Virus record (IMG/VR): IMGVR_UViG_3300037264_003623
Coordinates: 32,001-96,000 of that record
DNA length: 64,000 nt
DNA from: a virus
Direction: 5' to 3' (one strand)
Under the pieces are notes generated by a model. It was not told the DNA's origin. It searched no databases and worked only from the letters and a program-made list of their open reading frames with translations. Both the position numbers and the translations under genes were made by a program. Each line of letters starts with the position of its first letter. The stretch's first letter is position 1. Positions 9,229 to 63,981 of this stretch are shown in pieces.

Positions 9229-9303
9229 GGGATTATCTTCCTGATCGGTTCGGATATGATGAGGGAAACCGGCGCGGGCCGGTCCTTTTGCTTTGGAGGC
9301 AAA

Positions 9304-10305
9304 ATGAACACCAAGGAAAGCAAGGTATGGGGGGCCAAGCTCGCGTCGGTCCTGGGCACCACGATCGAGAAAGGAACGCGAGAGGGTAAGAGGGAGGAGA
9401 CTCTATGCCTTGAGGAAGGCGAGGAATTGCTGACTCGCGGAGGCCCAGGTTCAGGCCATTTCGGGCATGCCGGGCGTCCCGGCGCGGTGGGTGGCAGCGT
9501 CGAGGGAGGGGTGCAGGCCGGTCGGGCCGAGGCTCCCGAGTCCCCCGAGCACTTCAAGTGGTCGGGCAAGTTCGAGATGAAGCGCAAGGCGGGGCCGGGC
9601 GTGAACCTCTCGATCATCAAGGACCCCCGCCAGCGCCACTTCGAGGTCCACGGGGCGGCTGACGCCAAGGGCAAGCCGAAGCGAGGGAAGGCCGTCATCC
9701 GGACCAACGGAGACACCATCGAGCTCGATCACGATGAGCTCCACGACCTTCGGTCGAAGATGCGCTACGTCCAGATGACGAATACCCGCGACATCCAGGA
9801 GATCGCGGGGAGGGAGATCGTCAGGGGAAACACGATCGAGGTCGAGCACAAGGGGAAGACGGTGAGGATCCCCGTGAACGAGGACACCGTCCGCGAGATT
9901 GATCGCGCCTCCCATGCCTCGAAGAAGGAGGGGTTCTCCTTCACAGGCGAGAGCAAGCGGGAGATCCACAGGGCATACGACAAGATGTCGCGGGGGAACC
10001 CGATCCACATCGTGAAGGACATGGGGTTCTCCAAGGCCGGGAAGTTCGCGGCGTTCCGGGCCTATGTGGACGGGCCGAAGCGGTCGAAGAAGGACGTGGA
10101 CCGCTTGGTCGAGAGCAAGCGCGGCGTGGTGTCGAAGTCGACGGTCCAGGCCCTTCGACGGACGGCGAAGCAGTTCTTCGAGACTAGGAAGTCGGGATGG
10201 GATGCGAGGGACGGGCGATCCGCCACGGACGCCATGAAGCACTACCAGAAGGCGGCGGCCCTGTTCTCCCGGATCGAGAAGTCGGGCGAGCGGAAGAGGA
10301 GGTGA
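9304..10305 (+). CDS. putative virion cargo protein with GGPGSGHFGHAGRPG motif
   Basis: Leader MNTKESK..IEK resembles the kinase leaders; Gly-rich motif seen in phage head-associated proteins. Confidence 0.6.
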   Translation: MNTKESKVWGAKLASVLGTTIEKGTREGKREETLCLEEGEELLTRGGPGSGHFGHAGRPGAVGGSVEGGVQAGRAEAPESPEHFKWSGKFEMKRKAGPGVNLSIIKDPRQRHFEVHGAADAKGKPKRGKAVIRTNGDTIELDHDELHDLRSKMRYVQMTNTRDIQEIAGREIVRGNTIEVEHKGKTVRIPVNEDTVREIDRASHASKKEGFSFTGESKREIHRAYDKMSRGNPIHIVKDMGFSKAGKFAAFRAYVDGPKRSKKDVDRLVESKRGVVSKSTVQALRRTAKQFFETRKSGWDARDGRSATDAMKHYQKAAALFSRIEKSGERKRR

Positions 10306-10308
10306 AAA

Positions 10309-10599
10309 ATGGAGATCCCGAGCAATCTCAAGCCCTTCATCACACAGGAACAGTGGAGCCGCCTGCGGGTCGGAAATCTCTCCCCCGAGGACCAGGCGAC
10401 CGTGCTCGACATCCTCAACGGCGGGTTCGAGGGGATGGACCCCGAGAAGATCGACCCTGAGGACGTCGAGGAGACGGTGGATTTCGTCGAGGGGATCGTG
10501 GACGACCTCCTGGAGGAGGTCCCCGACCTTGACGAGGATGAGCTGGTTGCCGCGGAACAGACATCCGACGCCATCCTCGAAGAGATGGCCGAGGAGTGA
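10309..10599 (+). CDS. very acidic hypothetical protein
   Basis: GGAGG RBS; D/E-rich. Confidence 0.65.
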   Translation: MEIPSNLKPFITQEQWSRLRVGNLSPEDQATVLDILNGGFEGMDPEKIDPEDVEETVDFVEGIVDDLLEEVPDLDEDELVAAEQTSDAILEEMAEE

Positions 10600-10655
10600 A
10601 GCACCGCCGCCTGAAGGCGGCTCTCGCCACATTTTTGTAGACGGAGGGACTCTCG

Positions 10656-11060
10656 ATGGGGGAGCAGGCGGACGGGCGATTCTACGGCCCTCACCTGACG
10701 ATCGACGCCTACGGGTGCTCCAAGGAGAGGCTCGCGAGCCTGGAGGCCGCGTTCGACTTCCTGGACCGGATGCCGGGGGTCATCGGGATGGAGAAGATCA
10801 CCAAGCCTTACGTGTTCCGGCATCTCGCGCCGCCGGACCCGGAGTGGGGAATCACGGGGGTGGTCATCATCGCCACGAGTCATGTGAGTTTTCATTCTTA
10901 TCCCCAGATGGGGGTGTGCTTCGTGGACGTCTTCTCATGCAGGCCGTTCGATACGCGGAGGGCCGTGGATTTCTTCCAGGAGACGTTCGGAGGGGACGAG
11001 GTCGAGATCCGCGAGGTGAAGCGCGGTCTCCATTTCCACGAGACAGGAGGCGCTCGGTGA
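10656..11060 (+). CDS. speD: S-adenosylmethionine decarboxylase proenzyme (prokaryotic type)
   Basis: GPHLTIDAYGC; GITGVVIIATSHVSFHSYP; DVFSC. Confidence 0.85.
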   Translation: MGEQADGRFYGPHLTIDAYGCSKERLASLEAAFDFLDRMPGVIGMEKITKPYVFRHLAPPDPEWGITGVVIIATSHVSFHSYPQMGVCFVDVFSCRPFDTRRAVDFFQETFGGDEVEIREVKRGLHFHETGGAR

Positions 11061-11323
11061 GCGTAAAAAAGGTTCCGTGCCCGGTGTGCAACAAGGACAT
11101 GGAGTACGCGGGGCAGGAGGGAGGGCACAAGGAGCGGGCCAAGAGCGGCGAGGTCATCGAAACCGTCCATGTGTTCTTCATGTGCGAGAAGTGCGACACG
11201 TCGGTTCGCCTTCGCTTCCGGAAGGACGGCCAGACGGGGGACCTCTGGCGGGAGATCCAGAGGCGGAAAGCGGTAGGCAAGGTGGTCACCGACTTCGGTG
11301 GGAAGTTCGGAGAGATGGGATGA
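11057..11323 (+). CDS. zinc-ribbon protein
   Basis: CPVC...CEKC; GGAGG RBS. Confidence 0.65.
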   Translation: MSVKKVPCPVCNKDMEYAGQEGGHKERAKSGEVIETVHVFFMCEKCDTSVRLRFRKDGQTGDLWREIQRRKAVGKVVTDFGGKFGEMG

Positions 11324-13161
11324 GAACGCAGGATAGCAAGCGGTTCGCAGGCCTTCTCCTGGGCTCCCTGAACAAGGCGGAGTTCGAGGAGGAGGCGCAC
11401 CCGAGGGACGCCACGGGGAAGTTTGCCCCGAAGGAGGAATCCGCCCCTGCCGAGTCCGAGCACAGGAACCTTCGGTCCCTCGCCAGGGAGGCGTCCGCCC
11501 TGAGGGCCATCGGGGACGAAGGGGCAGCCAGGAAGATCGAGCAGAAGCTCCAGGCCGCCAGGGGGAAGGCAGAGGAGGGCCGTAGGGAGAGGATGCCGAA
11601 GCCGCTCGCTCCCCCTCGCCCCCAGCCAGCGCCCGCACCGAGGCCGCCGAGGGCGGCACCCGTTCCCCCTCCCCCGCCTCCATCTCCACCGAAACCGGCG
11701 AGATCTCCTCTTCCAAGGGCCGGGCCCGTCGATGTGGCCCATGAGCAGATAAGGATCGACAACGCGAGGGCGAAGGGGGATCTCTTCCGCGCCATGCGGA
11801 GGAGGATGGACGCGATCAAGGATCCGGCGAAGATGATGAACTTCGCTGATGCCCTGGACAGGAACAAGTACGATCAACTGGCCCAGGAGGCCAGGAACAA
11901 GCTCTTCGGCATGGGGTATGACAGGGATGGGAAGCCGGTCGATTTCGGGGCGAAGCCTCCTGCACCGTCTCCCGAGCCTCCTCCCTCGCCCGCGCCGCAG
12001 AGGCCCGCTCTGGCCGTCGCGGAACCTAAGCAACTGAGGCACGAGAAGGAGGCCGTCGGCGAGCTGAAGCGCAGGGCGTCCGGCTTCGACGATCTGGAGT
12101 CCAGGGTCAGGGAGAGGGTTCTGAGGCTCAAGAACCAGCAGAATAATCCACAGAAGGTTCGGAGCTTCGCCGATGAGCTGGAGGCACAGGGGGAGAAGTA
12201 TCTTGCGGAGGAGGCCAGGAACGCCCTCTGGGAGATGGGGTACAAGCCCGACGGCAGTCCGGTGCCGGAGGGCGAGAGGTTCGCGAGGCCCGCGCACGGT
12301 GTCCCGAGGCCAGCCGCGCCGCCTCCTCCTTCTCCTCTTCCTGAGGCCAGGGGTGCGACCGGCGTGAAGCACCCGATGTCGTCCGTCCACGACAGCGGGG
12401 CCGCCATGAAGGATGTCCAGTTCAATTTCCACGACAAGATTCACAAGGCGAAGGAGATGGGTGGCGGGATCGGGGAGACGCACAGGATCGAATTCAAGGA
12501 TGGGAACAAGGCCATCTACAAGCCGACGGCGGGGTCGGGGCTCCAGCATTACCACGATATGGGCCGTGATGTTAGGCGGACGATCGACTGGCAGATTCCG
12601 GAGGGGCAGCGGGAGGCCGTCGCCTACGCGATCAGCCGGGAGGCGGGTTTCGACATCGTGCCTCATGTCGAGCTGGTGAACTACCCGGTCGGGCGTCCGG
12701 GCGGGGGACACGCGATGGCTTGGGTGGAAGGTCAGGAGGCGGCCCACGCGGGGCAAAAGCTGAGGGATGATGCGAACGCCAATCATCCAGACCTGCACCG
12801 GATTGTCGCTCTCGACTTCATCATGGGCAACACCGACAGGCACTCCAGGAACTTCATGGGTGGCAAGGATGGACGATGGTACGCGATCGACAACGGGCTC
12901 GCCGGGTGCAAGGACATGGACATGTCGGAGTACAGGTCCGGACCCCATAGTATGTTGGAGGGGAGTCGGATACCTGACGAGGTCAAGGCCGAGATTCGAG
13001 CGATCAAGCCCGATGTGGTCAAAGGTGCCATGCAGAAGGCGGGATTCAAGCCGGTGGACATCAAGGGTGCCCTCGCCAGAATCGACTATTTGTCGAAGGC
13101 TCGAACATGGAAGAGCACCTGGGATGACAGTAGTGCAGCCAAGAGGCTCTACGAGGAGTAG
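11320..13161 (+). CDS. PI3/4-kinase-like (HipA/CtkA-type) kinase with leader, HPR motif and Pro-rich linkers
   Basis: IYKP, REAVAY, NTDRHSRN, AIDNG; N-terminal LNK|AEFEEEAHPRDATGKF. Confidence 0.85.
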   Translation: MRTQDSKRFAGLLLGSLNKAEFEEEAHPRDATGKFAPKEESAPAESEHRNLRSLAREASALRAIGDEGAARKIEQKLQAARGKAEEGRRERMPKPLAPPRPQPAPAPRPPRAAPVPPPPPPSPPKPARSPLPRAGPVDVAHEQIRIDNARAKGDLFRAMRRRMDAIKDPAKMMNFADALDRNKYDQLAQEARNKLFGMGYDRDGKPVDFGAKPPAPSPEPPPSPAPQRPALAVAEPKQLRHEKEAVGELKRRASGFDDLESRVRERVLRLKNQQNNPQKVRSFADELEAQGEKYLAEEARNALWEMGYKPDGSPVPEGERFARPAHGVPRPAAPPPPSPLPEARGATGVKHPMSSVHDSGAAMKDVQFNFHDKIHKAKEMGGGIGETHRIEFKDGNKAIYKPTAGSGLQHYHDMGRDVRRTIDWQIPEGQREAVAYAISREAGFDIVPHVELVNYPVGRPGGGHAMAWVEGQEAAHAGQKLRDDANANHPDLHRIVALDFIMGNTDRHSRNFMGGKDGRWYAIDNGLAGCKDMDMSEYRSGPHSMLEGSRIPDEVKAEIRAIKPDVVKGAMQKAGFKPVDIKGALARIDYLSKARTWKSTWDDSSAAKRLYEE

Positions 13162-13181
13162 AGCGGGTCAGGAGGAGAAAC

Positions 13182-13499
13182 ATGCTCATCGGGATGAGGG
13201 TTCGGAAGGACACGGATAAGGGCGAGGCTACCGTGTTCGAGTACCGGATGGGCCAGAATGGCAGGGTGGCCCTTACGGTCGGGGATCCGAACGAGATCGT
13301 CTCGGAGATCACGCTGGGGTCGGGGGACAACACGATGATCGAGGACATGGGCGGGTCATACGGGGTGAGGATGCCCCCGTTCGCGAAGGGGGCCGAGAAG
13401 ACATACACCCCCGCCGACGGGGTGAGCTTCATCCTTGCGCTCCTCGTCCAGTTCAGCAGGAACAACGGCTACTCGTGGGCGGAGCCGATCCTCTCATGA
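13182..13499 (+). CDS. small kinase partner protein (putative immunity/antitoxin)
   Basis: Directly follows kinase 1; paralog of 14686-15006. Confidence 0.6.
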   Translation: MLIGMRVRKDTDKGEATVFEYRMGQNGRVALTVGDPNEIVSEITLGSGDNTMIEDMGGSYGVRMPPFAKGAEKTYTPADGVSFILALLVQFSRNNGYSWAEPILS

Positions 13500-14689
13500 A
13501 GACGTTCTACTCCAGGAAGTTCGCGAGGTTCATGGGTTCCATCCTGGCGAAGGCCACATGGGACCCGGATCTCCACCCGAGGAGCGAGGGCGGGAAGTTC
13601 TCCAGGACCGAGGGAGTCTCTGAGGAGAGGCGGGTCGCGGAGAGGCTCATGGGGACCTCGGCGGATCAGCTTGAGGCGGAGGCACGGGAGACCGAGCGGG
13701 AGGCTTCCGCGCTGAGGGCGATGGGGAAGGGCGAGAAGGCCGCGATGGCCGACGCCGTGGCGAGGGACCTGATGGAGAGGGCGAAACTGGCGAGGGAGCC
13801 GGTCAGGGTGTTCAGGCCGGGATCGGAGCCGAGGAGGCCCGCCCCGCCGATAGATCCCACGAGGCATCCGCAGGAGTCCGTGAGGGGGAGGGCAGAGACG
13901 ATGAGAAAAGCCTCGGGGAAGCCTGAGGCTTTCATCATGAACACGCGCAGGGTCATGGGGGGCAAGGGAGAGTGCCACCGAGTCCTCTTCGACGACGGGA
14001 CCAGGGCCGCCTACAAGCCGACGGCGGGGTCCGTCCTTGTGCAGATGGAGAAGCAGGGCCGGGGTGAGGAGATCACGATCGACCCGAAGATCCCGGAATC
14101 GAAGCGCGAACGGGCCGTCTTCGATCTCAGCGCGATGGCCGGGTTCGACGTGGTGCCCCCGGTCGAGCTCGTGGACTACGATGGGGTGGGGTCCCCCGGG
14201 GGCGGGCACGCTATGGCATGGGTGGACGGGCAGGAGGCCATTGACATCGAGGACCAGTACTACAAGGACATCTCCGCGAACCATCCCGACCTTCACCGGA
14301 TTGCGGCGCTCGACTTCATCACGGGCAATGTAGACCGGCACCAGGGGAACTTCATGAGGGGGAAGGACGGGCGCTGGTACGCGATCGACAATGGCCTCTG
14401 CTTCACCAGGGACATGGAGCTCGGGATGTCGTGGTCCGATGTCATGCGGAAGCTCATGATGCACGTCACGCCGCCGGAGGTGCGGGCGGAGATCGCCTCG
14501 ATCGACAAGGACGCTATGGGCGGAATCATGAAGGAGGCGGGCTTCGACGCCGTGGACATCAAGGCCGCGCAGACGAGGCTGGATGTGCTCAAGGCCTTGG
14601 GCGGGTGGGGGACGGAGGGGCAAATGTACGGGGCGGCCGAGGACGCCTACTTCCAGGCGGGTGGGCGCAGGCGGCCAGGGAGGGAATGA
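13496..14689 (+). CDS. PI3/4-kinase-like (HipA/CtkA-type) kinase, paralog 2
   Basis: AYKP, RERAVF, NVDRHQGN, AIDNG; N-terminal LAK|ATWDPDLHPRSEGGKF. Confidence 0.85.
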   Translation: MKTFYSRKFARFMGSILAKATWDPDLHPRSEGGKFSRTEGVSEERRVAERLMGTSADQLEAEARETEREASALRAMGKGEKAAMADAVARDLMERAKLAREPVRVFRPGSEPRRPAPPIDPTRHPQESVRGRAETMRKASGKPEAFIMNTRRVMGGKGECHRVLFDDGTRAAYKPTAGSVLVQMEKQGRGEEITIDPKIPESKRERAVFDLSAMAGFDVVPPVELVDYDGVGSPGGGHAMAWVDGQEAIDIEDQYYKDISANHPDLHRIAALDFITGNVDRHQGNFMRGKDGRWYAIDNGLCFTRDMELGMSWSDVMRKLMMHVTPPEVRAEIASIDKDAMGGIMKEAGFDAVDIKAAQTRLDVLKALGGWGTEGQMYGAAEDAYFQAGGRRRPGRE

Positions 14690-15006
14690 TCGTGCTCATT
14701 GGGGTAAGATGGGTGAGGGACGTGGACACCGGGCGGGATGTGTCGTTCGAGTACAGGCTGGACCCGAGGACCGGCAAGGCTGTCCAGGTCGCGGGGCCCG
14801 CGAGGGCGAACGACGAGGTGATCCTCTCCCCGTGGGATGGGGTGATGGGCCCCGAGATCGCCAAGTATCACGGGATGGATTTCAAGCCGGTTCCGAAGGG
14901 CGGGAGGAGGCTGACCCCGGACGACGGGGTTGACTTCCTTCTCGCCGTTCTCGTCAAGTACGCGAGGAACACCGGCTACGGCAGGGTCGAGCCGATCAGC
15001 CGATAG
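14686..15006 (+). CDS. small kinase partner protein, paralog 2
   Basis: ATGA overlap with kinase 2; shares LIG.R, FEYR and TP.DGV.F.LA.LV..RN.GY..EPI with 13182-13499. Confidence 0.6.
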   Translation: MIVLIGVRWVRDVDTGRDVSFEYRLDPRTGKAVQVAGPARANDEVILSPWDGVMGPEIAKYHGMDFKPVPKGGRRLTPDDGVDFLLAVLVKYARNTGYGRVEPISR

Positions 15007-15015
15007 GAGGATCAG

Positions 15016-16341
15016 ATGGAGACGCCGTCGAGCAGGGCCACGAGCAATCTGATTTCCAAGTCCCTGGAGACCGTCCAGGAGACGCCGGGCCAGGTGTCCT
15101 CGAAGGAGATGCAGGACCTCTCCGCGATGATCCTGAAGGCGATGGACGACCCCGCCTTCGTCGAGACGGTCTGCCCGAGCGGCGGCTGCCCCGAGCTCCG
15201 CGGCCTCCTCCTGGAGGTGGTCGAGCGGGCCAAGGAGGAGGACGACTCCCCCGAGGTCAAGGCGTGCGTCTCGAAGAAGATCCCGATCCTCATCGAAGAG
15301 GGATATCCGAGAGCCCAAAGTGTCGCGATCGCGTTCTCGGTTTGCCGCAAGGACCCGTCCGTCGCCGACAAGGCGGTGAAGGTCGAGGGGACGCCCCGCT
15401 ACATGACCGAGGCGGAGCTCCGCGCCATGAAGCCGAAGAAGCCGGAGACCGACACGGACACGGAGATCGAGTCCGCGATCGGGTGCGATCTCGACGCGCT
15501 CAACAGGACGACTTCCGTCCTGATTTCCAAGGCCGGGACCTCTGATGGCGCGAAGCTGGGGTGGGAGACCCGTAGGGGCGGAGCGCCCACTGATGAACCC
15601 AAGGCTGGGATGCCCTCCAGGCAGGAGTGGGATGGGTTCCAATCGAACGCTGATGCGGTATTCGATGTCAGCAGGGGCGCGGTCAAAGAGGTTGAACGGA
15701 TCGAGGAGAGGGCCATAGAAGCGGAAGAGGAGGGTAGATCCCGCCTACATCCGTTCGGCGTGAAAGAGCCGACGACGCCGAAGGGCGTGGAGCAGGCTCT
15801 GAACAAGCTGGCGGATGTCGCGCCGAAGGCCGCTGACCTCGCGGCGAGACTGAAAGGCGTCCCTGGGGTGGACGAGGGGAAGAGGAAGGCCGCTGAGGAC
15901 AAGATGCGGGGATGGAAAGGTGGGGTGCCCCGTGAGGAGATGCAGGATTTCAACGACATCGTGTCCGACATCTACACGATGGTAGACAGCGCCAGGGCGG
16001 ACCATGACCCGAAGTACATGGAGGGGTCCGAGCCCGTGACGCGGCCTTCCGTGGGCAAGGAGCTCGTTCTGAACCTGGGCGTGCAGAAGCGGTTCTTGTC
16101 CCTGCAAGACCTTGAGGGATTCAAGCCGACGAAACCGGAGGACGTCCGCCCGCCACGGGAGAGCACCAGGCACGAGGGCGAGCCGGAAGACTCGGGGCTT
16201 CGTCGCCTCATCATGCCGGGATGGGCCCGAAAGGGCGGCCAGGTTGCGCCTCCCGGTGACGTCCCGAAGGATAGGATCAGGGGCGATGGCTTGACCGAGA
16301 TGCTCATGCCGAGCAGGAAAGAGGACGAGCCCAAGGAATAG
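15016..16341 (+). CDS. putative virion cargo protein
   Basis: EEGYPRAQSVAIAFS; ISK|AGTSDGAKLGWETRR. Confidence 0.65.
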   Translation: METPSSRATSNLISKSLETVQETPGQVSSKEMQDLSAMILKAMDDPAFVETVCPSGGCPELRGLLLEVVERAKEEDDSPEVKACVSKKIPILIEEGYPRAQSVAIAFSVCRKDPSVADKAVKVEGTPRYMTEAELRAMKPKKPETDTDTEIESAIGCDLDALNRTTSVLISKAGTSDGAKLGWETRRGGAPTDEPKAGMPSRQEWDGFQSNADAVFDVSRGAVKEVERIEERAIEAEEEGRSRLHPFGVKEPTTPKGVEQALNKLADVAPKAADLAARLKGVPGVDEGKRKAAEDKMRGWKGGVPREEMQDFNDIVSDIYTMVDSARADHDPKYMEGSEPVTRPSVGKELVLNLGVQKRFLSLQDLEGFKPTKPEDVRPPRESTRHEGEPEDSGLRRLIMPGWARKGGQVAPPGDVPKDRIRGDGLTEMLMPSRKEDEPKE

Positions 16342-16351
16342 CGCACACGAT

Positions 16352-17059
16352 GTGCGGAAACCGGAGGAATACCCCGTGAAAGAGCGCAAGGACAAGGACC
16401 TGGGCTCGATTTTCAACGCCAAGTCCCTCCTCGACGGGCAGGGGACCCCACAGCGGGACACCGCCCAGAGCAGGAAGGTCGCCCTGGACTTCGCCGGGAT
16501 GCTCGCGAAGGATGGCACGAGCGAGGGTGCGAAGAAGGGCTGGGAAACTCGACGCGGCGCGGCAGCCCTGTCCGAGGGCCCCAAGGAGTTCAGAGACTTC
16601 ATGGTAGGAGCCATCGCCCAGCGCGACACCCCTGATGCCAAGGCGACGAAGGAGATGGCGGAGAATCTCAAGGACAGTGATGTTCCCCTGAAGGATGCTT
16701 TTACCGCCGCTCAGAAACGGGTTGACCAGGCCGACGCCCTCGCCGGGGAGACCCTCAAGCGGTTCGGCTCCGCCCTTTCCCAGTATCACGTCGACAACAT
16801 CAATCGCGAGCGGGAGACGATCAAGCGGGCCATGGATGTCGCCGACAGGCATGTCCGGGAGAACAGCCGGGGGTATGCCGCCGACGCCATCAGCAACGCC
16901 GTCGAGGGCGCGGACCTCATGTCGATCTGGGCATCTTCCGCGGTCGGAGAAGTCTGGAAAAAGCAGACCCGGGAGAGGGGGGTGGGGAAGTCCGGCACTT
17001 CCGAGGGGGTCCCGAAGACCCTCAAGGGGTCGTTCCTGACCGAAGGCGACACACAATAG
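16352..17059 (+). CDS. putative virion cargo protein
   Basis: LAK|DGTSEGAKKGWETRR; partial second copy VGK|SGTSEG. Confidence 0.65.
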   Translation: MRKPEEYPVKERKDKDLGSIFNAKSLLDGQGTPQRDTAQSRKVALDFAGMLAKDGTSEGAKKGWETRRGAAALSEGPKEFRDFMVGAIAQRDTPDAKATKEMAENLKDSDVPLKDAFTAAQKRVDQADALAGETLKRFGSALSQYHVDNINRERETIKRAMDVADRHVRENSRGYAADAISNAVEGADLMSIWASSAVGEVWKKQTRERGVGKSGTSEGVPKTLKGSFLTEGDTQ

Positions 17060-17118
17060 GTTGCGTTTCCCATCCGGTTCCTTCTTGGCGAATACGCTAA
17101 AGGGTGTATAATAGGATC

Positions 17119-18681
17119 ATGGAAGTGGGCGCGATCTATGACGTCCAGAAGGAAGGCACCTCCGAGGGTGCCTACCGCGGGTGGGAGACTAGGAGAGACG
17201 GCCCGAGGGCCGCCCCTTTCGTCGAAGCGCGGAGGAAGATTGGGAGCATGGTGGAGGAGGCCAACGAGGAGTTCAAGAGGGAGGTTGCTCTTCACCTGAA
17301 GGGTATCCCGAGCGACTACGCGGGGATGACACGCAGGGACAGGGAGAACAGAGCCGAAGGCCTGAGGCTCGTTCGGGATGCAGTCGAGAGACTGAGGGGG
17401 GCCGAGGTCGCGGAGGCGGACAGGGGTACGCTCGCCAGGATGATCGACTACGCGGAGCGGGAAGCCCCCATCATCAGCGAGCGCGACAAGGGGGACCGGA
17501 GGTGGCACGAGGAGTTCGACGCCTTCCTCGCCGAAGCCGAGGAGGTCGCGTCCAGGGCGAAGGAGCCCGAGGGAATGGAAAAGGGCGAGGTCGTCGTCTG
17601 GGAGCCGAGCAGGCATCCCCGGGGGGAGGGGGGCCGGTTCGCCCAGGCCGAGGCCAGGGATCCCGAGGAGAGGCGGAGGCTGGTCGAGTCCGCGGCGTCC
17701 GAGGCCGCCAGGCGGGTTATCGACAGCATGGGCCGAGACGCGAACAGGGTGATCTACGATACGGTGAGCGAGTTCGGCCTGTCCGGCAACGACGCGGCCG
17801 AGGCGTTCCAGATGGCCGACCGGAGGCTGCGGAAGGAGCGGGAGCTGGATGTGCTCCGCAAGGCCACTGGGGACCTGCTCTCGAAGGTCGAGTTCGAGGA
17901 GGACGAGCACCCGAGGGACCCCGCAGGCAGGTTCGCCTCCAGGGGAGAAGGGGTCGCGCCGAGGGCCGATGCCGTCTCGAAGGAGGAGATCGACAGGGTG
18001 TTCGACGGCAGGGCGAAGAACCCGAGCACGCCCGATGAGCAGAGCCGCCTGCACCAGGAGATCGAGGCCTCGGCGGACAGGGCGAGTCGGATGTCGCAGG
18101 AGGACCACATCTCCGGGGTGCCCGAGAGGATGACCAAGGTATCCGAGAGGGCGGAGGCCGTCGTGATGTCCCTCGGCAGGAGGATCATGGAGGAGGGCGC
18201 AGCTAACTGGAAGGAGTTCGTCTTCGCGGTGGAGAACGGGAGCGGGGACGTGGTGGGGATGAGGGAGGGCGACAAGGAATCAGCGTCGTGCGTCGGGATC
18301 TACGGGGGGATGGACAGGGATAGGGGATACACGTTCGTCCACAACCATCCCACAAGCAACTCCTTCTCGGACGTGGACGTGATCATATTCACTAGGATCC
18401 CCCAGTTTACGAGGGCGGTGGTGGTCAGCGGGATGTGGACGTACATTCTGGAGAAGCCGCCGGGGTGGAACTTCAGGAAGGTTTGGGGCGTGGACGATGC
18501 CAGGGCGGAGTACCTCCGCCAGAGCGACGTGCTGACGCCCAAGTACAAGCCCCCCGCCAACCCGGACGGGACGAGGGACGACGCCAGGGACAGGGTCGCG
18601 TGGCGGGAGCAGGGCCATGAGGTGATATCCAACCTGGCGAAGCTCTACGGGCTGTCCTACAGGAGGGAGAAGAGGGCATGA
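17119..18681 (+). CDS. putative virion cargo protein with C-terminal JAB/MPN-like domain
   Basis: VQK|EGTSEGAYRGWETRR; two HPR..GRF motifs; HNHPTSNSFSDVD (HxH..S..D). Confidence 0.7.
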   Translation: MEVGAIYDVQKEGTSEGAYRGWETRRDGPRAAPFVEARRKIGSMVEEANEEFKREVALHLKGIPSDYAGMTRRDRENRAEGLRLVRDAVERLRGAEVAEADRGTLARMIDYAEREAPIISERDKGDRRWHEEFDAFLAEAEEVASRAKEPEGMEKGEVVVWEPSRHPRGEGGRFAQAEARDPEERRRLVESAASEAARRVIDSMGRDANRVIYDTVSEFGLSGNDAAEAFQMADRRLRKERELDVLRKATGDLLSKVEFEEDEHPRDPAGRFASRGEGVAPRADAVSKEEIDRVFDGRAKNPSTPDEQSRLHQEIEASADRASRMSQEDHISGVPERMTKVSERAEAVVMSLGRRIMEEGAANWKEFVFAVENGSGDVVGMREGDKESASCVGIYGGMDRDRGYTFVHNHPTSNSFSDVDVIIFTRIPQFTRAVVVSGMWTYILEKPPGWNFRKVWGVDDARAEYLRQSDVLTPKYKPPANPDGTRDDARDRVAWREQGHEVISNLAKLYGLSYRREKRA

Positions 18682-19787
18682 AGGATCCGAAGGTGCCGAT
18701 CACCGAGTGGGACATCGACGACCGCGGCAACGTGCCTCCCTACGGGAACGCCGTCGCGAAGGAGGGCACTTCTGAAGGGGCGAAGCTGGGATGGGAAACG
18801 AGGCGGGAGGGCGGACAGGCGGAGGAGAAGAAGCCGGACGCCTCATCCTTCGAGACGCCCCCCGAGAATTGGCAGCAAAGTCTGCCGTACCAGCATCGGC
18901 TGAACTTGGGTGCATGGACGGAGTGGCTCACCAACCTGAGGATGTCCCATGTCTACCGCCAGGGGGGCGAGGCCAAGCCCTACCGGCCAGAGTTCGCCGA
19001 CGTCGCGGCTCGGCGCGAGGTCGGGCGGTGGCTCGATCGCAACGACGATAAGATGATCTACCACATCTCGCGGAAGGTGGACATCTCGCATGGGCCGAGG
19101 GACGAGAAGATCGGCGAGGCGGTCGGGCTGGTTCAGGAGATCGTTCGCATGGCCCAGGCCGAGGCGCGGAGGGAGGCCGAGACGCAGGCCAAGAAGAACC
19201 CTCTGTCCGGCGTCCTGTTCGGGAAGGCCAGGGTCGTGGGCGGATTCCCACTCACGCAGGAGGACGCGCTCGCGAAGGAAGGCACGTCCGAAGGCGCCAA
19301 GAAAGGGTGGGAGACCAGGCGCGAGGGCGGCGGGGCGCTATCCGAAGAGGAGCGCAAGAGGGCCATTCGATCCCTTGAGGTGCGGGGCGCGGCGGACAGG
19401 GGCGACGTGTCCGTGAAGATCGTCCCCCTTCTTACCGGGGAGGGGTTCGGGGTGGAGACCACGGTGGCTGGCGACAGGAGGAACCCGAGGGAGCCCGCCA
19501 TGACGATGGAGGAGGCACGCAGGTTCGCCCTGGAGCAGCTCCAGAGCCCCCGCCCGACCCAGACCCCCGAGATGAAGCCGAAGCCCGAGGCGGAGGAGAA
19601 GAAGCCCTCTCCGACGCCCGTGAGGCCCTACAGGAACCCCGGAGACTTGGCCGCCGACTACAAGCGGCAAGGTATCCCGAAGCAACGTGCCTGGGATCAG
19701 TTCATCATCGACACTGTCCTCTCCCCGAAGTTCCGGTCGGAGCAGGTGGACGCGAGGGAGTTCTTCCAGGCCTACGATAGGGCGTAG
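18678..19787 (+). CDS. putative virion cargo polyprotein
   Basis: Two K|EGTSEGAKxGWETRREGG copies. Confidence 0.7.
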   Translation: MKDPKVPITEWDIDDRGNVPPYGNAVAKEGTSEGAKLGWETRREGGQAEEKKPDASSFETPPENWQQSLPYQHRLNLGAWTEWLTNLRMSHVYRQGGEAKPYRPEFADVAARREVGRWLDRNDDKMIYHISRKVDISHGPRDEKIGEAVGLVQEIVRMAQAEARREAETQAKKNPLSGVLFGKARVVGGFPLTQEDALAKEGTSEGAKKGWETRREGGGALSEEERKRAIRSLEVRGAADRGDVSVKIVPLLTGEGFGVETTVAGDRRNPREPAMTMEEARRFALEQLQSPRPTQTPEMKPKPEAEEKKPSPTPVRPYRNPGDLAADYKRQGIPKQRAWDQFIIDTVLSPKFRSEQVDAREFFQAYDRA

Positions 19788-58517: not shown

Positions 58518-59225
58518 ATGGTTCCATCGCGGGGCGAGGACGGCCTGTCCGTCCTGAAGTCTGTCACCAGGGGGATGGTCGAGAAGTTCAATCCCTTCCA
58601 CGACGAGCAGGGGCGTTTCACCAGCGCGTCGGGTGGGGAGAAGGAGTCGATGGGGCGCTCCGAGCGTGAGCTGGAGCAGAAGCACGTCGACTACATCCAC
58701 GCCAACGAGAAGGCGGGCAAGACGCCGGGCCCCCGCGGCCACTTCCTCCATTACACGACCAAGGCGGAGATGACCGGAAGGGAGCCAGAGGGCTGGAAGA
58801 AGTTGAACACCAAGATCGGCAACTACGAGGGGATGGCGAACGCCTACATCAAGAGGGGGACGGAGAAGGGGGCGGAGGGTTGGCAGAGGAAGCTCAATCT
58901 GGCGCGTGCCGAGACCATGCGGAAGGCCTCCGATCAGTACAAGAGGCAGAGGGACAAGATCGAGGTCCCGAAGGCCGAGGCCGCTCCTGCGTCCGCCGTT
59001 CCGAAGCCGGAGGAGAAGTCGATGGAAGCTGCCAAGGCCAAGATCCATCCGCTTCTTGCGGCGGACTTCAAGCTGATCGAGGAGGCGCACGGGTACAGCG
59101 CGGAGGAGGAGAGCAAGCTCCCACCCGAGGAGATCAAGCAGGTCAAGGTCGGTGCCGTGAAGGACGCCGTTCGGATCGGGATGATCACGGCCGAAGAGGG
59201 CAAGGAAATCATCGACGGGCTGTAA
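58518..59225 (+). CDS. putative virion cargo protein
   Basis: VEK|FNPFHDEQGRFTS. Confidence 0.65.
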   Translation: MVPSRGEDGLSVLKSVTRGMVEKFNPFHDEQGRFTSASGGEKESMGRSERELEQKHVDYIHANEKAGKTPGPRGHFLHYTTKAEMTGREPEGWKKLNTKIGNYEGMANAYIKRGTEKGAEGWQRKLNLARAETMRKASDQYKRQRDKIEVPKAEAAPASAVPKPEEKSMEAAKAKIHPLLAADFKLIEEAHGYSAEEESKLPPEEIKQVKVGAVKDAVRIGMITAEEGKEIIDGL

Positions 59226-59235: not shown

Positions 59236-60381
59236 ATGTCCACCGAGAAGACTCCGTGGGAAGGACGCCTCGGGATCGAGGTGATGGGCAAGATGCACGG
59301 ATGCTGCGTCGGGACCATCGCCAAGTGGCGGCCCCAGATGATCGGGGTCAAGAAGGAGTGCTCCTACTGCGGCTCCTTCCTGAAGACGATCCGGGCGGGC
59401 GAGGTACTCTCCCCCGTCTTCACGGGCGGCATGCTGGAGCACCACCGGGACGTCGAAGAGCCCCCGATGGTCATCGGCGGGCTCTACTTCGCCTCGTACA
59501 AGTTCCCGACCGAGGAGGCCGTGAAGGCGTGGATGGGCGAGCGGGAGATCCCGGGGGACTTCGTCGGCAAGATCGACGACCATGCCTTCTACCACCCCAT
59601 CGACGACTCCCTCATGGTGAACTCCGTCCGGCTGATCTGGGTCGCCCCCGGCGTCGTGGGAGAGATCGGGGTGTCCGAGAAGCAGGTCGCCACGGGTGGG
59701 GGCCAGGCGTCCATGTCGTCCCCCGGAATGACGACCACATCCATCGCGTCCGGGGGTGATCTCTTCCCGGCCCAGGGCCCGGCGCAGGCTGCCGCCGAAG
59801 TCCCTGGCGTGCCGTCCGTGATCCAGGGGATCACCGACGTGCAGGACGGGCACCAGCACGAGTTCTTCCTGACGCCTACCCCCGAGGTCGGCGGGTGGAG
59901 GGTCAAGTCGTTCACGTCCTACAACAGCGGGCACGCGCACATGGTGGAGTGCTCCATCGGGGCGGGCGGAGAGATCGATACCAGGACGGCCCCGGACCAG
60001 ACCCCCGTGGGCGGGCACGCGCACGCGCACCGGATCGCGTGGCCGGTCGGCAAGTCCTTCGGCGAGACGAAGCCCTACGAGAGGCAGTTCCGGGTCACCT
60101 CCGGCGACGTGGTCCTGCTCCGCCGGGCGGCGGGGATGGTGGACAACTTCTGCAAGAACATCCAGAATGGCAGGAGTGTCCTCGACTCCGCGAGCGACTT
60201 CCAGGCCCAGCTCTCCAGCGCGATCGAGAGGGCCAGGGGGCAGGTCACGGGCATGGAGGGGGTGGTCGCCATCAAGACCGCGGACATCGAGCGCCTCCAG
60301 GGGTGCGCGAAGTTCATCGACGACATGGGCGACGGCCTCGCCATAAACATCGGGATGGAGAAGGGGAAGGAGCAACCATGA
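59236..60381 (+). CDS. protein with GHxH repeats
   Basis: GHQH, GHAH, GHAHAH. Confidence 0.65.
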   Translation: MSTEKTPWEGRLGIEVMGKMHGCCVGTIAKWRPQMIGVKKECSYCGSFLKTIRAGEVLSPVFTGGMLEHHRDVEEPPMVIGGLYFASYKFPTEEAVKAWMGEREIPGDFVGKIDDHAFYHPIDDSLMVNSVRLIWVAPGVVGEIGVSEKQVATGGGQASMSSPGMTTTSIASGGDLFPAQGPAQAAAEVPGVPSVIQGITDVQDGHQHEFFLTPTPEVGGWRVKSFTSYNSGHAHMVECSIGAGGEIDTRTAPDQTPVGGHAHAHRIAWPVGKSFGETKPYERQFRVTSGDVVLLRRAAGMVDNFCKNIQNGRSVLDSASDFQAQLSSAIERARGQVTGMEGVVAIKTADIERLQGCAKFIDDMGDGLAINIGMEKGKEQP

Positions 60382-61598
60382 ACGAGGGACGCGACGTATG
60401 GAGCGGGGGCAACCTCTCCGAGAAGGGTGTCCAGGTCAACAAGTCGCTCCGCAGGGGCCTCGACATCCACAAGGGCATGGAGCTCTTCCCGAAGAAGGCG
60501 AAGCCCTCCGAGATCGATCAGACCCTCGAAGATCTCCAGGATGCCCAGGATTACATCGAGAAGGAGAGGAGACTCCGCAAGGTCGGAGGCCCTTTCGTCA
60601 ATAGCCCCCTCGTCGAGAAGGAAGGTACCTCCGAGGGGGCGAAGCGCGGATGGGAGACCCGTCGAGAGGGTGGGGCCGGAGATGAGGAGAAACCGACGGG
60701 TTCCTCCAAGGCCGAGCGTATGGGCATCCAGAACCCCGACTCCTCCGGCATGGGATCCCACCCGGACCACGACAAGCATCCCCTTCACGAGACCCTCGCC
60801 AACGCGGGGCTTGAGTATTCCCACTCGGTGGTGGTCAACCACGGGTCGGGGGACGACCGCGTCCATCACGCCTACAAGATCCCCGGAACCGACCGCCAGG
60901 TCGGGGTACACCAGACGGCGAAGGGCGACTGGATGTGGGAGTCGAGCAAGGCCGGTTCGGGCCGCATGAAGACGGGGGGAGACGCGGCCTCCCTGGCCTC
61001 CCACCTCAAGAGGGCGGAGAAGGGCCTCGATGGCGACGAGTCGGTGCGGATCTCCAAGGACCAGGTCGAGAAGATCCTGAAGGACGCAGGGTGGGACAAG
61101 CTCCCGCTCCCCGACAAGGCGAAGGAGGCACTGGAGGATCTGGTCAGCAACGGGGCGAAGCCGGTGTCCGAGTACACCGGGAAGATCATGGTGGAGCATG
61201 GGATTCCCGAGGAGCCACCGGCGTTCGTCAGGCCGAAGAAGCTGGAAGTCGGGGACATGGTGATCCCGATCGACTGGAGGTCCGTCGGGGCGTTCGGGGG
61301 AAAGTTCGACATGCCGATGGTGCCCCAGGCCGCCAAGGTGAAGAAGATCTACATGGGCCCCGCGAGGGTCTCGAAGAACGCCTATCCGTTCGGAAGGACG
61401 CCTGCTGATCTCTCCAAGGTCGAGATGGTCACCGAGGATCGGATGTGGGGACTCGACCTGGAGGAGGGGAAGGTCAAGAAGGACGACGACACTTTCCCCT
61501 CCCCTGTTTCTACCCGGGACACTACAATGGTACTTCGGATGGAGGCGCTGGCCTCGCCAGAAGGGGAGATCAACCCCGGCGCGGCATCGCCTCGTTGA
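60378..61598 (+). CDS. putative virion cargo protein
   Basis: VEK|EGTSEGAKRGWETRREGG. Confidence 0.7.
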   Translation: MNEGRDVWSGGNLSEKGVQVNKSLRRGLDIHKGMELFPKKAKPSEIDQTLEDLQDAQDYIEKERRLRKVGGPFVNSPLVEKEGTSEGAKRGWETRREGGAGDEEKPTGSSKAERMGIQNPDSSGMGSHPDHDKHPLHETLANAGLEYSHSVVVNHGSGDDRVHHAYKIPGTDRQVGVHQTAKGDWMWESSKAGSGRMKTGGDAASLASHLKRAEKGLDGDESVRISKDQVEKILKDAGWDKLPLPDKAKEALEDLVSNGAKPVSEYTGKIMVEHGIPEEPPAFVRPKKLEVGDMVIPIDWRSVGAFGGKFDMPMVPQAAKVKKIYMGPARVSKNAYPFGRTPADLSKVEMVTEDRMWGLDLEEGKVKKDDDTFPSPVSTRDTTMVLRMEALASPEGEINPGAASPR

Positions 61599-61631
61599 AC
61601 GCACACGGTGTGCGGTTTTTCGGAGGAGCCC

Positions 61632-62051
61632 ATGAACCTTGGAAACTACGCGAGATCGGGGGCTGGCAAGGTGTCCAAGTCCCAGCGGGCGCGGGAGGGC
61701 GACGTCAACAAGCAGTTCGACCCGACCAAGCAGCCCCGCGTGCCGTCGAACATCCCCGGGGCGGGGCCGCAGGGCGTCCCCCCGGCGGATCGCGACGAGA
61801 TGGCCGCCTTCGCCAGGACCGGGAACGCGGAGATGATCCCGCAGGTGGTCGCGGCTCAGACGGGCCTCGCCTCCCACGGGCCCGCGCTGGCCTCCTCGCT
61901 CGCCCGGATGGGCGGGCAGGTGCGCCTGTCGCCGGGGCAGTTCCGCGCCTGGGCGAACCCGCAGGACCCGGCCCCGAAGCCCTCGACGCAGGTCACGAGC
62001 GATGCGTCGAAGCCGGGTTCGCTGCCGCCTCCGGCCCCCCCGGTGTACTAG
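61632..62051 (+). CDS. Pro/Ala-rich putative cargo protein
   Basis: VNK|QFDPTKQPR variant motif. Confidence 0.55.
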   Translation: MNLGNYARSGAGKVSKSQRAREGDVNKQFDPTKQPRVPSNIPGAGPQGVPPADRDEMAAFARTGNAEMIPQVVAAQTGLASHGPALASSLARMGGQVRLSPGQFRAWANPQDPAPKPSTQVTSDASKPGSLPPPAPPVY

Positions 62052-63078: not shown

Positions 63079-63981
63079 ATGCAGACCCCCGAGTCTGCCA
63101 GGATGCGGCTCTTCGCGGGGGGCCTGCGGCCTGAGAACCAGGCTGTAGGCTCCCCGCTTGGTATTGGCCTTCTGTCCAAGATGAAGTCGTCCGCTGGAGG
63201 GCGTCAGTGGCCCCCGGCAGCCCCCAAGGAGGCCGACTTCACCGTGGTGGACATGATGTGCCAAGCTCTTCTTGGGGGCCAGGAGACCCTGGTCGAGCCC
63301 ATCGGGGTGGGAATCCACAGGCCGTACAGGGTCGAGTTCCTCGACGGGATGGACTCCGGCCCGATGACCACGAGGCGGGCCGCCCTCAAGACGATCTACT
63401 GCCAGTACGAGAACAAGCGGTACTGCGCCTCTGTGGACTTGGATGTGACGGGGCCGGAGCGGGAGATCCTCTCCTTCGAGCTGGACCGCATGTTCGGGTT
63501 CGACCTGGTGCCCCCGACCGTGGGGAGAGAGATCGAGAAGGTCGGGTTTGGGAGCGTCCAGGCGTGGGTGGACTGTCCGACGGCGTGGCAGTGGATCGAG
63601 CGGGGCTACGACTACCGCGAGGACAAGACGAACCCCTGGCTCCACCGGCTTGCTGCCTTCGACTTCATCCGGGGTGAGATCGATCGACACTCGAACAATT
63701 TCATCATGGACGACCAGCGGCGGGTCTACGCCATTGACAATGGGTACTCCATCGTGAAGGGTGACGACCGGACCTGGATGAGGTCGAGCGCGGGGAAGCA
63801 CCTGGTGGGCACGCCCATCCATCCCGGAGTCATGGTGCAGATCCAGGCGATCGACGAGGGAAAGGCGTTCGACCTCGTGGACCGTGGCCGCTTCAAGAGC
63901 GGCGAGGCCGACGGGGTGGTCAAGCGGATCAGGGAGATGAAGGGTCTGACGGAATGGCGGAAGCTCGGCGATCTCTGGTAG
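63079..63981 (+). CDS. PI3/4-kinase-like kinase, paralog 3
   Basis: ALK, REILSF, FDLVPPTV, IDRHSNN, AIDNG. Confidence 0.85.
   Translation: MQTPESARMRLFAGGLRPENQAVGSPLGIGLLSKMKSSAGGRQWPPAAPKEADFTVVDMMCQALLGGQETLVEPIGVGIHRPYRVEFLDGMDSGPMTTRRAALKTIYCQYENKRYCASVDLDVTGPEREILSFELDRMFGFDLVPPTVGREIEKVGFGSVQAWVDCPTAWQWIERGYDYREDKTNPWLHRLAAFDFIRGEIDRHSNNFIMDDQRRVYAIDNGYSIVKGDDRTWMRSSAGKHLVGTPIHPGVMVQIQAIDEGKAFDLVDRGRFKSGEADGVVKRIREMKGLTEWRKLGDLW

Follow-up and report, generated by a model that had tools for sequence, protein, structure and literature searches.

Why should proteins with no evident relationship share one short peptide, and why should it always stand at a boundary between modules? The locus that raises this question lies in a 64,000-nucleotide stretch (the window) of an uncultured phage with a 109-kb genome, in which about a dozen unrelated proteins or modules bear, judging by their sequences, one common type of short junction. 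At each junction a basic residue is followed directly by one of three tags with the consensus [AESD]GTSEGAxKGWETRR (GTSEG), x[E][FW]xExxHPRxxxG[KR][FW] (HPR) and GGxGSGxxGHxGRPGxxGGS (GRPG). The first, as GTS(E/D)GAxxGWETRR, occurs exactly six times in the window, always on the + strand, by both a six-frame regular-expression search and a degenerate DNA pattern (Table 1), and its glycine codons put the preceding Lys codons just where the first-pass annotation had them. No further copy was found anywhere in the 109-kb genome, and none in 100 dinucleotide-preserving shuffles. The tag is under selection at the protein level: the copies average 73% identity in nucleotides versus 87% in amino acids, and different codons are used at 60% of their identical degenerate residues, which bears out the varied synonymous codons remarked on earlier. 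Their flanks are about 30% identical, i.e., unrelated, and this together with the codon divergence marks the copies, on sequence grounds, as old.

The full HPRxxxG(K/R)F form occurs four times, as had been claimed, in genes 11320, 13496 and, twice, 17104 (17119 in the first-pass annotation). Degenerate variants accompany these copies; the two suspected farther downstream are recovered as FNPFHDEQGRF at 58587 in gene 58518 and as K/QFDPTKQPR in gene 61608 (formerly 61632), the slash here and below marking the candidate cut. The third tag, GGPGSGHFGHAGRPGxxGGS, came to light in gene 9304. A [LIVM]-x-K triplet, with a background frequency of 1.3% per position, precedes 12 of 12 junctions, where (L/V/I)xK had been noted before nearly all copies.

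Table 1. Tag copies, leaders and junctions in the window; a slash marks the candidate cut
Feature	Coordinates	Strand	Details
GTS(E/D)GAxxGWETRR, six copies	15535, 16514, 17155, 18765, 19281, 60624	+	G codon; regex
HPRxxxG(K/R)F, four copies	11398, 13574, 17614, 17908		His codon
Cargo gene 9304	9304..10305	+	leader MNTKESKVWGAKLASVLGTTIEK, 9304-9372
Gene 9304, third tag	9439-9498	+	GGPGSGHFGHAGRPGAVGGS, directly after second basic site LLTR/
Kinase-like cargo 1	11320..13161	+	leader MRTQDSKRFAGLLLGSLNK, 11320-11376, 19 residues
Kinase-like cargo 1, HPR tag	11377-11424	+	AEFEEEAHPRDATGKF, adjoins leader
Small gene after kinase 1	13182..13499	+	105 residues; paralog of 14686-15006; no tag
Kinase-like cargo 2	13496..14689	+	leader MKTFYSRKFARFMGSILAK, 13496-13552
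Kinase-like cargo 2, HPR tag	13553-13600	+	ATWDPDLHPRSEGGKF, adjoins leader
Two-module cargo protein	15016..16341	+	junction LISK/ 15520-15531; tag AGTSDGAKLGWETRR, 15532-15576
Cargo protein 16352	16352..17059	+	leader-like ...SRKVALDFAGMLAK/ to 16510; tag DGTSEGAKKGWETRR, 16511-16555
Gene 16352, C-terminal degenerate seventh GTSEG	about 16982-17020	+	VGK/SGTSEGVPK; K/SGTSEGVPK near 16994
Protein with at least 3 modules (gene 17104)	17104..18681	+	3 junctions
Gene 17104, junction 1	17152-17196	+	DVQK/EGTSEGAYRGWETRR
Gene 17104, junction 2	17584-17640	+	GMEK/GEVVVWEPSRHPRGEGGRF
Gene 17104, junction 3	17887-17934	+	LLSK/VEFEEDEHPRDPAGRF
Two-junction cargo protein	18678..19787	+	NAVAK/EGTSEGAKLGWETRR, 18762-18806; ALAK/EGTSEGAKKGWETRR, 19278-19322
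Gene 58518, between terminase and portal	58518..59225	+	leader ...SVTRGMVEK, 58518-58586
Gene 58518, variant tag	58587-58619	+	FNPFHDEQGRF, adjoins leader
Gene 60378, between terminase and portal	60378..61598	+	81-residue N-segment ending PLVEK/; tag EGTSEGAKRGWETRR, 60621-60665
Small protein 61608, weak member	61608..62051	+	degenerate HPR-like VNK/QFDPTKQPRV, without the G-K-F part
Third kinase-like protein	63079..63981	+	N-terminus MQTPESARMRLFAGGL...GLLSK/, leader-like by eye only; no tag after it

Several of the proteins begin with leaders whose kinship had been noticed at the outset; they belong to a metagenome-wide family of 19 residues, M[KR]T..S..F[GA]..[IL]G..L.K, which stands before tags across many metagenome proteins and includes genes 11320 and 13496, with a looser fit in 9304 and 16352. 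By analogy, this leader probably works like the capsid-targeting sequence of phage T4. The attached domains had been called unrelated, with kinases and a JAB domain among them. The kinases hold at a borderline level in the window (PI3_PI4_kinase E 1e-7 to 7e-6; TIGR03843 E 6e-15, below curated cut-offs): the first gives PI3_PI4_kinase at E 7e-6 and TIGR03843 at E 5.5e-12, both under the cut-off, and the second PI3_PI4_kinase at E 1.1e-7 with 32.5 bits, the cut-off being 27.1. The JAB assignment finds no support. The C-terminal module of gene 17104 has HNHPTSNSFSDVD, spaced one residue shorter than the JAMM signature E...HxH-x7-S-x2-D; it gave no Pfam match at E<=1 and no meaningful PDB sequence match, and the AF2 model offers no support for an MPN fold in this part, where pLDDT is under 50. 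Elsewhere in the same protein the model is confident of helical modules (residues 35-155 and 185-260); each of the three junctions falls in a segment with pLDDT under 50, in low-confidence linkers between confident modules. Modules in the window are marked by tag positions, shuffling and AF2, with family support for the kinase-like ones only; no family match was found for the product of 13182..13499.

Beyond this phage, each of the three tags is found widely among uncultured phages, and a single protein can have up to about nine repeats. A GTSEG profile (E<=1e-3) matches 377 protein clusters (50% identity), in many of which a protein has two to nine matched stretches; an HPR profile matches 62 proteins and a GRPG profile more than 2021. 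The 50,697 GenBank phage records yielded neither a tag match nor a cultured relative, the ART regions of two cultured actinophages have no tags, and a literature search found no paper describing the three, which are apparently undescribed. Domains of the tag-bearing proteins include Mu-like_Pro, Portal_Mu, Phage_portal, Phage_Mu_F, Peptidase_S78_2, ART-PolyVal, ADPrib_exo_Tox, Zeta_toxin, ParBc, 2H, GNAT and MPTase-PolyVal, with SprT and M48 also among the GRPG-tag proteins; in these phages, the tags sit at junctions beside portal, MuF, head-protease, ART, Zeta-toxin and ParB domains. Modules are shuffled at the junctions between phages, and genes separate in one phage are fused modules in another. 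The halves of the two-module protein at 15016..16341 are split in relatives by tag-bounded extra modules (P0015, P0006 and a 911-residue ORF of L054), the modules of 18678..19787 recur in other combinations among metagenome proteins, and P0016 and P0014 have an extra module and a second tag at the gene 60378 junction. As this junction shows, the tags are interchangeable: the ortholog in the syntenic genome G001 reads AVEK/SIDLDKEGKFREELHPRRSGKF, an HPR tag at the exact position of GTSEG. Gene 58518 orthologs read LLK/FNPHHDAHGRF (G001) and LVDK/VGNPHHDAQGRF (L058), that of gene 9304 reads ...DFLEK/GGPGSGHHGHAGRPGQVGGS, and the VNK/QFDPTKQPRV element of gene 61608 is likewise kept in relatives.

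Whichever of the three tags is considered, one protein keeps to one preceding residue, and lineages differ in which residue (K, N, L, A, R or F) this is. Position -2 of GTSEG is uniform in 48 of 55 multi-copy proteins (pair identity 0.89 versus 0.26 pooled), and the 404 instances of position -1 of GRPG divide into L135, K127, A49, R38, N25 and F9 (pair identity 0.79 versus 0.24). The constancy within proteins could partly stem from intragenic duplication; one protein can show the same upstream context before different tags. In an Asn-type Mu-like phage, Phi-x-N stands before the tags and also in the protease, the scaffold and the capsid N-terminus. An exception is L008/P0233, with Leu before its GRPG tags and Asn-Glu before its GTSEG tags.

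These lineage classes (K, R, N, L/A, F) resemble the P1 classes of proteases, which counts against the idea that the tags, preceding residue included, are loading signals binding capsid, scaffold or portal, and that multi-tag proteins are packaged whole and uncut. Conservation of the tags over very different phages sharing an HK97-fold shell, and their presence on head-module proteins, would suit such signals; yet fusions to portal, MuF or protease already have their anchor in the head, with tags standing exactly where anchor joins payload, and the same modules occur fused in one phage and as separate genes in another. We regard loading without cleavage as distinctly unlikely.

Structural modeling indicates that a head protease of the assemblin fold, resembling T4 gp21, is among the products of this phage. 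[quoted passage not shown] The domain, for which no Pfam or PHROG match was found, has an invariant His, Ser and His. The first-pass annotation had suggested looking for the same site in the capsid precursor. The capsid protein (Phage_capsid) has a variable N-peptide of 5-25 residues ending in a conserved NEE[MLV][ILV]EK/ in 29 relatives, and the protease-scaffold protein has conserved candidate sites GLAK/, ILLAK/ and VLAK/, none of these sites in either protein being followed by a tag; since Phi-x-K is a short pattern of low information, its presence in these proteins could also be due to chance or helix periodicity.

Because a candidate protease site and a tag are shared by unrelated proteins, these probably enter the virus head, are cut into their parts and reach the host. 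The explanation we favor, which we place barely on the probable side of even, is that they are capsid-internal cargo of the polyvalent type. A leader, often of 19 residues, would target the cargo to the capsid; the phage's own assemblin-fold prohead protease would cut after it in the prohead, here at [LIVM]-x-K/, with LLTR/ in gene 9304 as a possible Arg variant; and one of the three interchangeable, widely conserved tags directly after the site would stand at the N-terminus that the cut creates on each module it frees. A protein with more than one junction would then be a polyprotein, whose modules come apart within the prohead and are ejected afterward along with the DNA. A Lys-specific head-protease site joined to a separate tag had been proposed at the outset. 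Residue constancy, the tag swap, the gp21-like protease and the capsid Phi-E-K fit it, as do the portal, MuF and protease junctions of other phages; the position of the main cluster outside the head module does not.

What the tag would do after the cut is a further question. Our preferred reading is that it acts on the mature module, in loading, retention or exit, rather than defining the cut, since head proteases can carry a tag at their very start and the capsid and scaffold have tagless candidate sites. A variant of the main reading, differing only in the purpose of the tag, makes the tags P'-side docking elements for assemblin-fold head proteases with no role after the cut. It would account for their place directly after the lineage-specific residue, beside Mu-like_Pro and S78_2 protease domains and in disordered linkers. 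Many Mu-like proteases, however, begin MAN-WDESKHPR..., and other proteins have the GRPG tag after only 7-12 residues, which in both cases leaves little or nothing to cut off; the capsid and scaffold sites lack it altogether, and three unrelated tags would need to dock on very divergent proteases. Docking as the sole function therefore seems to us unlikely.

In another scheme the head protease plays no part, and the cut is made after delivery, or in the cytoplasm, either by zincin-like or JAB-like peptidase modules of the cargo or by a protease of the host. Iyer et al. 2017 (PMC5512222) propose autoproteolysis by MPTase domains; a relative has an HEIGH module behind leader and tag, and some GRPG-tag proteins have MPTase-PolyVal, SprT or M48 domains. 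Against this, most tag-bearing proteins have no peptidase domain, none was confirmed within the window, and the same Phi-x-K or Phi-x-N context recurs at the capsid N-terminus and in the protease-scaffold of the same phage; such processing is very unlikely. Finally, the proteins might not be virion cargo at all: the tags would be short linear motifs with a conserved binding partner, of host or phage origin, in infected cells, and the leaders would have some other use. This would sit well with the main cluster: some 55 kb separate it from the head genes, its surroundings look early or middle, and it adjoins an AAA ATPase and an AdoMet decarboxylase. It is nevertheless highly improbable: elsewhere the tags show a strong association with fusions to portal, MuF or head protease and with neighborhoods of head genes, and this phage itself has two tagged genes in the interval from terminase to portal.

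The cargo reading has several precedents. In T4, a capsid-targeting sequence on IPI-III and Alt is removed by the prohead protease gp21. Both systems have a short conserved N-terminal leader on unrelated proteins, ending in a head-protease consensus (here a candidate site), and a protease of the gp21 fold, and the proposed outcome is likewise cargo delivered with the DNA. The T4 site, however, is (L/I)-x-E rather than Phi-x-K, the leader here is of another sequence and 19 residues long, and the internal junctions would give polyproteins; most importantly, a conserved tag would stay on the mature N-terminus, which has no T4 counterpart. Polyvalent proteins are strings of two to fifteen unrelated, effector-like or enzymatic domains per polypeptide, predicted to be packaged and injected (Iyer, Burroughs, Anand, de Souza, Aravind 2017, PMC5512222); term searches of that text turned up nothing on junction motifs, on linkers or on these tags. 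Tag-bearing relatives share with them ART-PolyVal, MPTase-PolyVal, ParB, Zeta toxin, 2H and the MuF/portal fusions, and these relatives and other tag-bearing proteins clearly conform to the multidomain pattern, whereas in the window the modules stand in part in leader-bearing genes of their own and no Pfam domain of that study was detected. As for proximity to head genes, genes 58518 and 60378 show it and the 9.3-19.8 kb cluster does not. In phiKZ and SPN3US, ejection or inner-body proteins are cut by the prohead protease at S/A/G-x-E, as measured by mass spectrometry (PMC5694885, PMC10052503). Many head-internal proteins, an assemblin-fold protease and a short consensus site also found in the capsid protein are common to these phages and ours; the site differs, no conserved tag after the cut is known to be described for them, and the cuts measured there are predicted from sequence here.

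A broader view, possible although well short of probable, is that the three tags form a general address-label system of tailed phages, in which an N-terminal peptide exposed by the head protease is read by the HK97-type head and governs retention or ordered ejection; candidate recognizers would be the inside of the shell, the portal and the end of the packaged DNA. The cargo-loading peptides of encapsulins, which guide unrelated proteins into such a shell and are short, conserved, usually C-terminal and without an attached protease site, offer a likeness, here coupled to proteolysis. Both are short conserved peptides in disordered regions of unrelated proteins, associated with an HK97-fold shell; the sequences differ, and binding of the shell by the present tags is a possibility. 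If the address-label view holds, the tags could predict phage-injected effectors and serve to load foreign proteins into capsids.

More generally, if the junctions are cut and the modules packaged, the tags would give a simple sequence rule for finding phage-injected proteins. Among these, across thousands of uncultured phages, would be candidate effectors of anti-defense and host takeover, which mostly lack recognizable domains. The lineage-specific residue before the tag would then read out the P1 specificity of the head protease from sequence alone, and the interchangeable tags point to a conserved interaction inside phage heads. On the practical side, laboratory phage systems offer a place to try a cassette of leader, site and tag as a means of getting foreign proteins into capsids. 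As a minor observation, phrog_37179 matches the product of 63079..63981 and likewise the other two kinase-like proteins.

The first-pass annotation had placed six copies of the tag GTS(E/D)GAxxGWETRR (the GTSEG tag), with varied synonymous codons, in the window near 15529, 16508, 17149, 18759, 19275 and 60618. A six-frame regular-expression search combined with a degenerate DNA pattern recovers all six there and none further in the whole genome, and a chance origin is ruled out by the 0 matches obtained in shuffled sequences. A degenerate seventh copy lies at the end of gene 16352 (genes are named by their start positions in the window). The second tag, HPRxxxG(K/R)F (the HPR tag), likewise occurs as had been described: four copies are present in the window, while gene 58518 has the variant FNPFHDEQGRF and gene 61608 a degenerate form, QFDPTKQPR. 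A third element (the GRPG tag), GGPGSGHFGHAGRPGAVGGS, stands in gene 9304 directly after LLTR. The earlier statement that nearly all copies follow (L/V/I)xK can be made stronger, as [LIVM]-x-K precedes all 12 GTSEG and HPR junctions (LISK, MLAK, DVQK, AVAK, ALAK, LVEK, SLNK, ILAK, GMEK, LLSK, MVEK and TIEK) against a background of 1.3% per residue. The six GTSEG copies share 73% nucleotide identity versus 87% amino-acid identity, different codons encode 60% of their identical degenerate residues, including TCN/AGY switches for Ser and CGN/AGR switches for Arg, and their flanks are only ~30% identical. Because the codons have diverged and the flanks are unrelated, we regard these copies as old elements kept by selection at the peptide level; the same observations rule out a recent duplication or a DNA-level repeat.

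Across 203 instances, the GTSEG consensus is [LVI]-x-[K 78 / N 61 / A 25 / L 16]-[AESD]-GTSEGA[KR]KGWETR[RK]GG. Of 55 multi-copy proteins, 48 show no variation at position -2 among their copies (pair identity 0.89 versus 0.26 expected from pooled frequencies). The residue directly ahead of the third tag (L 135, K 127, A 49, R 38, N 25, F 9) is similarly constant within a protein (0.79 versus 0.24). Moreover, different tags in one protein or phage share their upstream context: Lys precedes GTSEG, HPR and GRPG in the window's phage and its relatives, and among other proteins A-N-E precedes both tags in P0144, L-D in P0130 and L-L/V-L in P0043. An exception is L008/P0233, with Leu before its GRPG tags and Asn-Glu before its GTSEG tags. 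Such a lineage-specific upstream residue fits the pattern expected of a cleavage site co-evolving with each phage's protease, with the proviso that intragenic duplication could inflate the constancy. Between Lys and the HPR core the spacing differs by 1-3 residues, as expected if site and tag are adjacent yet independent.

The candidate protease is a 575-residue ORF after the portal gene, which has no match in Pfam, PHROGs or NCBIfam; a PDB sequence search with its profile gave spurious LRR matches only. An AF2 model of its N-terminal domain, conserved in 19 orthologs, has a pLDDT of 78 and finds its best fold match in T4 gp21 (Foldseek probability 0.99; VIA-align Z 12.4, rmsd 2.7 A over 134/165 residues), followed by the herpesvirus proteases (VZV, Z 8.1). 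Recognised by fold only, the ORF is thus a predicted prohead protease-scaffold fusion, and the invariant His71, Ser128 and His161 (numbered by the first row of the ortholog alignment) are suggestive of a Ser-His-His triad, as in herpesvirus assemblin. Behind the protease domain, GLAK|E is conserved in close relatives, and ILLAK|K and VLAK|Q in nearly all relatives, the bar marking the candidate cut. The first-pass annotation had suggested checking the capsid precursor for the same site. In 29 relatives its N-peptide varies in length and sequence and has a conserved end, NEE[MLV][ILV]EK, ahead of a strongly conserved [TS]I.T.DL..GGLLNP; [ILV]EK is a candidate site there, and it has no tag. L004, a Mu-like contig of the Asn type, has Phi-x-N ahead of both tags and again in a scaffold-like protein and close to the N-termini of its protease and capsid protein. 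Short as these patterns are, the candidate sites in capsid, scaffold and protease fit the reading of the junction as a protease site.

The leaders had been called related, and a 19-residue leader family indeed starts many metagenome proteins (e.g., MKTNTSTLFGDSLGRFLAK, MRTKESNIFGKAIGRVLEK and MKTALSKTFGEAIGRVLSK), in which a GTSEG or HPR tag comes directly after it. The fit to this family is exact for genes 11320 and 13496 and loose for 9304 and 16352. Asn-type phages use another leader, MKLTNE.K..I.RAR.RLAN.

Relatives provide direct comparisons of individual junctions. Gene 60378 shares its 80-residue N-segment and its downstream domain with its ortholog in G001, a record syntenic with the window's genome over ~70 kb, where the segment ends in ...AVEK. 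The junction reads EGTSEGAKRGWETRR in the window versus SIDLDKEGKFREELHPRRSGKF in G001; two other relatives have an inserted extra module and a second GTSEG tag at this point. In P0006, P0015 and a 911-residue ORF of the relative's sequence L054, additional modules bounded by tags, ~130 to 670 residues in all, lie between the halves of gene 15016, and the first module of gene 17104 is a stand-alone leader-bearing protein in P0101 and P0112. Further modules behind the same junctions, namely a ParB-like DGTHR and a HEIGH zincin-like one, are assigned by motif alone, Pfam confirming neither. In these comparisons, the tags are interchangeable and the modules shuffle at the junctions.

What the tag does can be separated from the cut: the same tags occur in phages with differing upstream residues, three tags replace one another, many head proteases and other proteins have a tag at the extreme N-terminus, where little or nothing is left to remove, and the candidate capsid and scaffold sites lack one. 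These observations favor a role on the mature module, where the tag would serve to load it, retain it or let it leave the head, over the main alternative that it is a docking element for the protease. Self-cleavage by an N-O acyl shift at G-T-S was set aside, as a catalytic fold is hardly to be expected from 14 residues whose flanks are not conserved, and such a mechanism fails to account for the equivalent HPR and GRPG tags.

The tags are widespread among uncultured phages. A degenerate-pattern scan detected GTSEG in six unrelated IMG/VR contigs, where it trails the protease domain in a protease-scaffold protein of Mu gpI type, separates a Mu-type portal from an ART domain, and is present in one probably MuF-like protein without a family match. 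A large protein that by eye resembles a protease-scaffold polyprotein (also without a family match) has two copies, along with GSGNFGHAGxPG elements. A profile built from 13 copies matched 377 of 1.84 billion representative proteins at E<=1e-3, many with 2-9 matched stretches each; most have no Pfam domain, and the rest show Mu-like_Pro, Portal_Mu, Zeta_toxin, ART-PolyVal, HD, PI3_PI4 kinase or cytidylyltransferase. The HPR profile retrieved 62 proteins, including many Mu-like proteases starting MAN-WDESKHPRDDDGKF, as well as giant proteins that combine 3-6 tags with ART, MuF, portal, topoisomerase IB, NUDIX or GNAT domains. With only 8000 candidates scored, the third-tag profile yielded more than 2021 proteins, typically bearing 2-7 copies apiece, whose domains (ART-PolyVal, MPTase-PolyVal, ParBc, Zeta_toxin, 2H, Phage_Mu_F, Phage_portal and Peptidase_S78_2) constitute the phage polyvalent-protein repertoire. 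Among species-representative genomes, GTSEG is confined to Kiritimatiellia and Verrucomicrobiota MAGs, which hint at the host range, an unclassified rumen MAG and two ~110-kb phage contigs in archaeal MAGs. These contigs (CAZKEV010000002.1 and CAYNQC010000001.1, L054-L063), whose MAGs bear the labels Methanomicrobiales and Bathyarchaeia, are closely related to the window's phage, have the same cargo cluster and are probably mis-binned. Tag segments and one cargo protein gave no tblastn match in 50,697 GenBank phage records; cultured Mu-like proteases match in the protease core only, and the ART/MuF regions of two cultured actinophages are without tags. The GTSEG profile found nothing in the records of five large relatives, of which the closest, G001, ends inside the cargo region, making absence there uninformative.

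In arrangement, the proposed system is comparable to the T4 CTS/internal-protein system and to the way phiKZ-like phages process their ejection proteins, and the relatives' domain repertoire places it in the class of the phage polyvalent proteins (Iyer et al. 2017, PMC5512222). The junction grammar, with its apparent lineage-specific site and conserved interchangeable tags, and the leader family appear to be new: a term search found no mention of such motifs in Iyer et al. 2017 and Jamet et al. 2017, and a full-text search of open-access papers for the tag strings returned nothing relevant.

The cargo had been annotated as kinases, a JAB domain and unknowns. Scanned against Pfam, PHROGs and NCBIfam, the window's cargo proteins matched only kinase-like and AdoMetDC families; the JAB call, based only on HNHPTSNSFSDVD, was not confirmed. 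The expectation of several-module proteins fits gene 17104: in its AF2 model (from a shallow alignment), residues 35-155 and 185-260 each form a confident helical module, and the three junctions at K16, K160 and K261 and their tags lie between or ahead of them at pLDDT <50; its C-terminal part has no resolved structure. A homolog search with the entire gene retrieved only itself.

The window covers bases 32001-96000 of its parent record, a single 109,083-bp virus contig (CheckV completeness given as 75%) of 63% GC, with third-position GC of ~0.88 and nearly all genes on the + strand. The virus is a tailed phage.

Coordinates of features in the window (no prefix), in further sequence of the same phage (L001-L003) and in a relative (L054)
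Feature	Coordinates	Remark
Small ORF directly upstream of cargo cluster	8821-9228	DUF5661 domain, E 1e-7
S-adenosylmethionine decarboxylase gene	10656-11060	AdoMet_dc, E 5e-26
Tandem duplication, kinase-like gene + partner	11320-15006	
Partners, ~105 residues	13182-13499, 14686-15006	
Kinase/partner pairing in a relative	L054:3592-3951	
Terminase large subunit	52766-58162	interrupted by inteins
G-H-x-H proteins	59236-60381, 62084-62671	between terminase and portal
Third kinase-like protein	63079-63981	near head genes
Portal	L003:9193-12333	with intein + HNH
Predicted prohead protease-scaffold fusion	L003:12299-14026	
HK97-type major capsid protein	L003:14088-15083	Phage_capsid, E 1.7e-5; truncated at contig end
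Intein-related matches (RNR, DnaB, DNA polymerase, RecA-like protein)	L001:4052-7261, 8442-11045; L002:419-4090, 7060-9477	

Inteins are unusually many in this genome; the terminase seems to contain three Hint-type insertions, with LAGLIDADG and MTES_1575/DUF559 endonuclease domains. Inside the cargo cluster, the decarboxylase gene is flanked by gene 9304 on one side and by the first kinase-like gene on the other. The partners of the duplicated kinase-like genes have no leader, tag or family match, and each kinase-like gene and its partner could possibly form a toxin-immunity-like pair. The third kinase-like protein has a leader-like N-terminus, MQTPESARMRLFAGGL...GLLSK, with no tag after it. 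The two G-H-x-H proteins, named for their repeats of this motif, are both conserved in relatives, one giving a weak YmaF match and the other matching phrog_15223 'protease' (E 2.8e-8).
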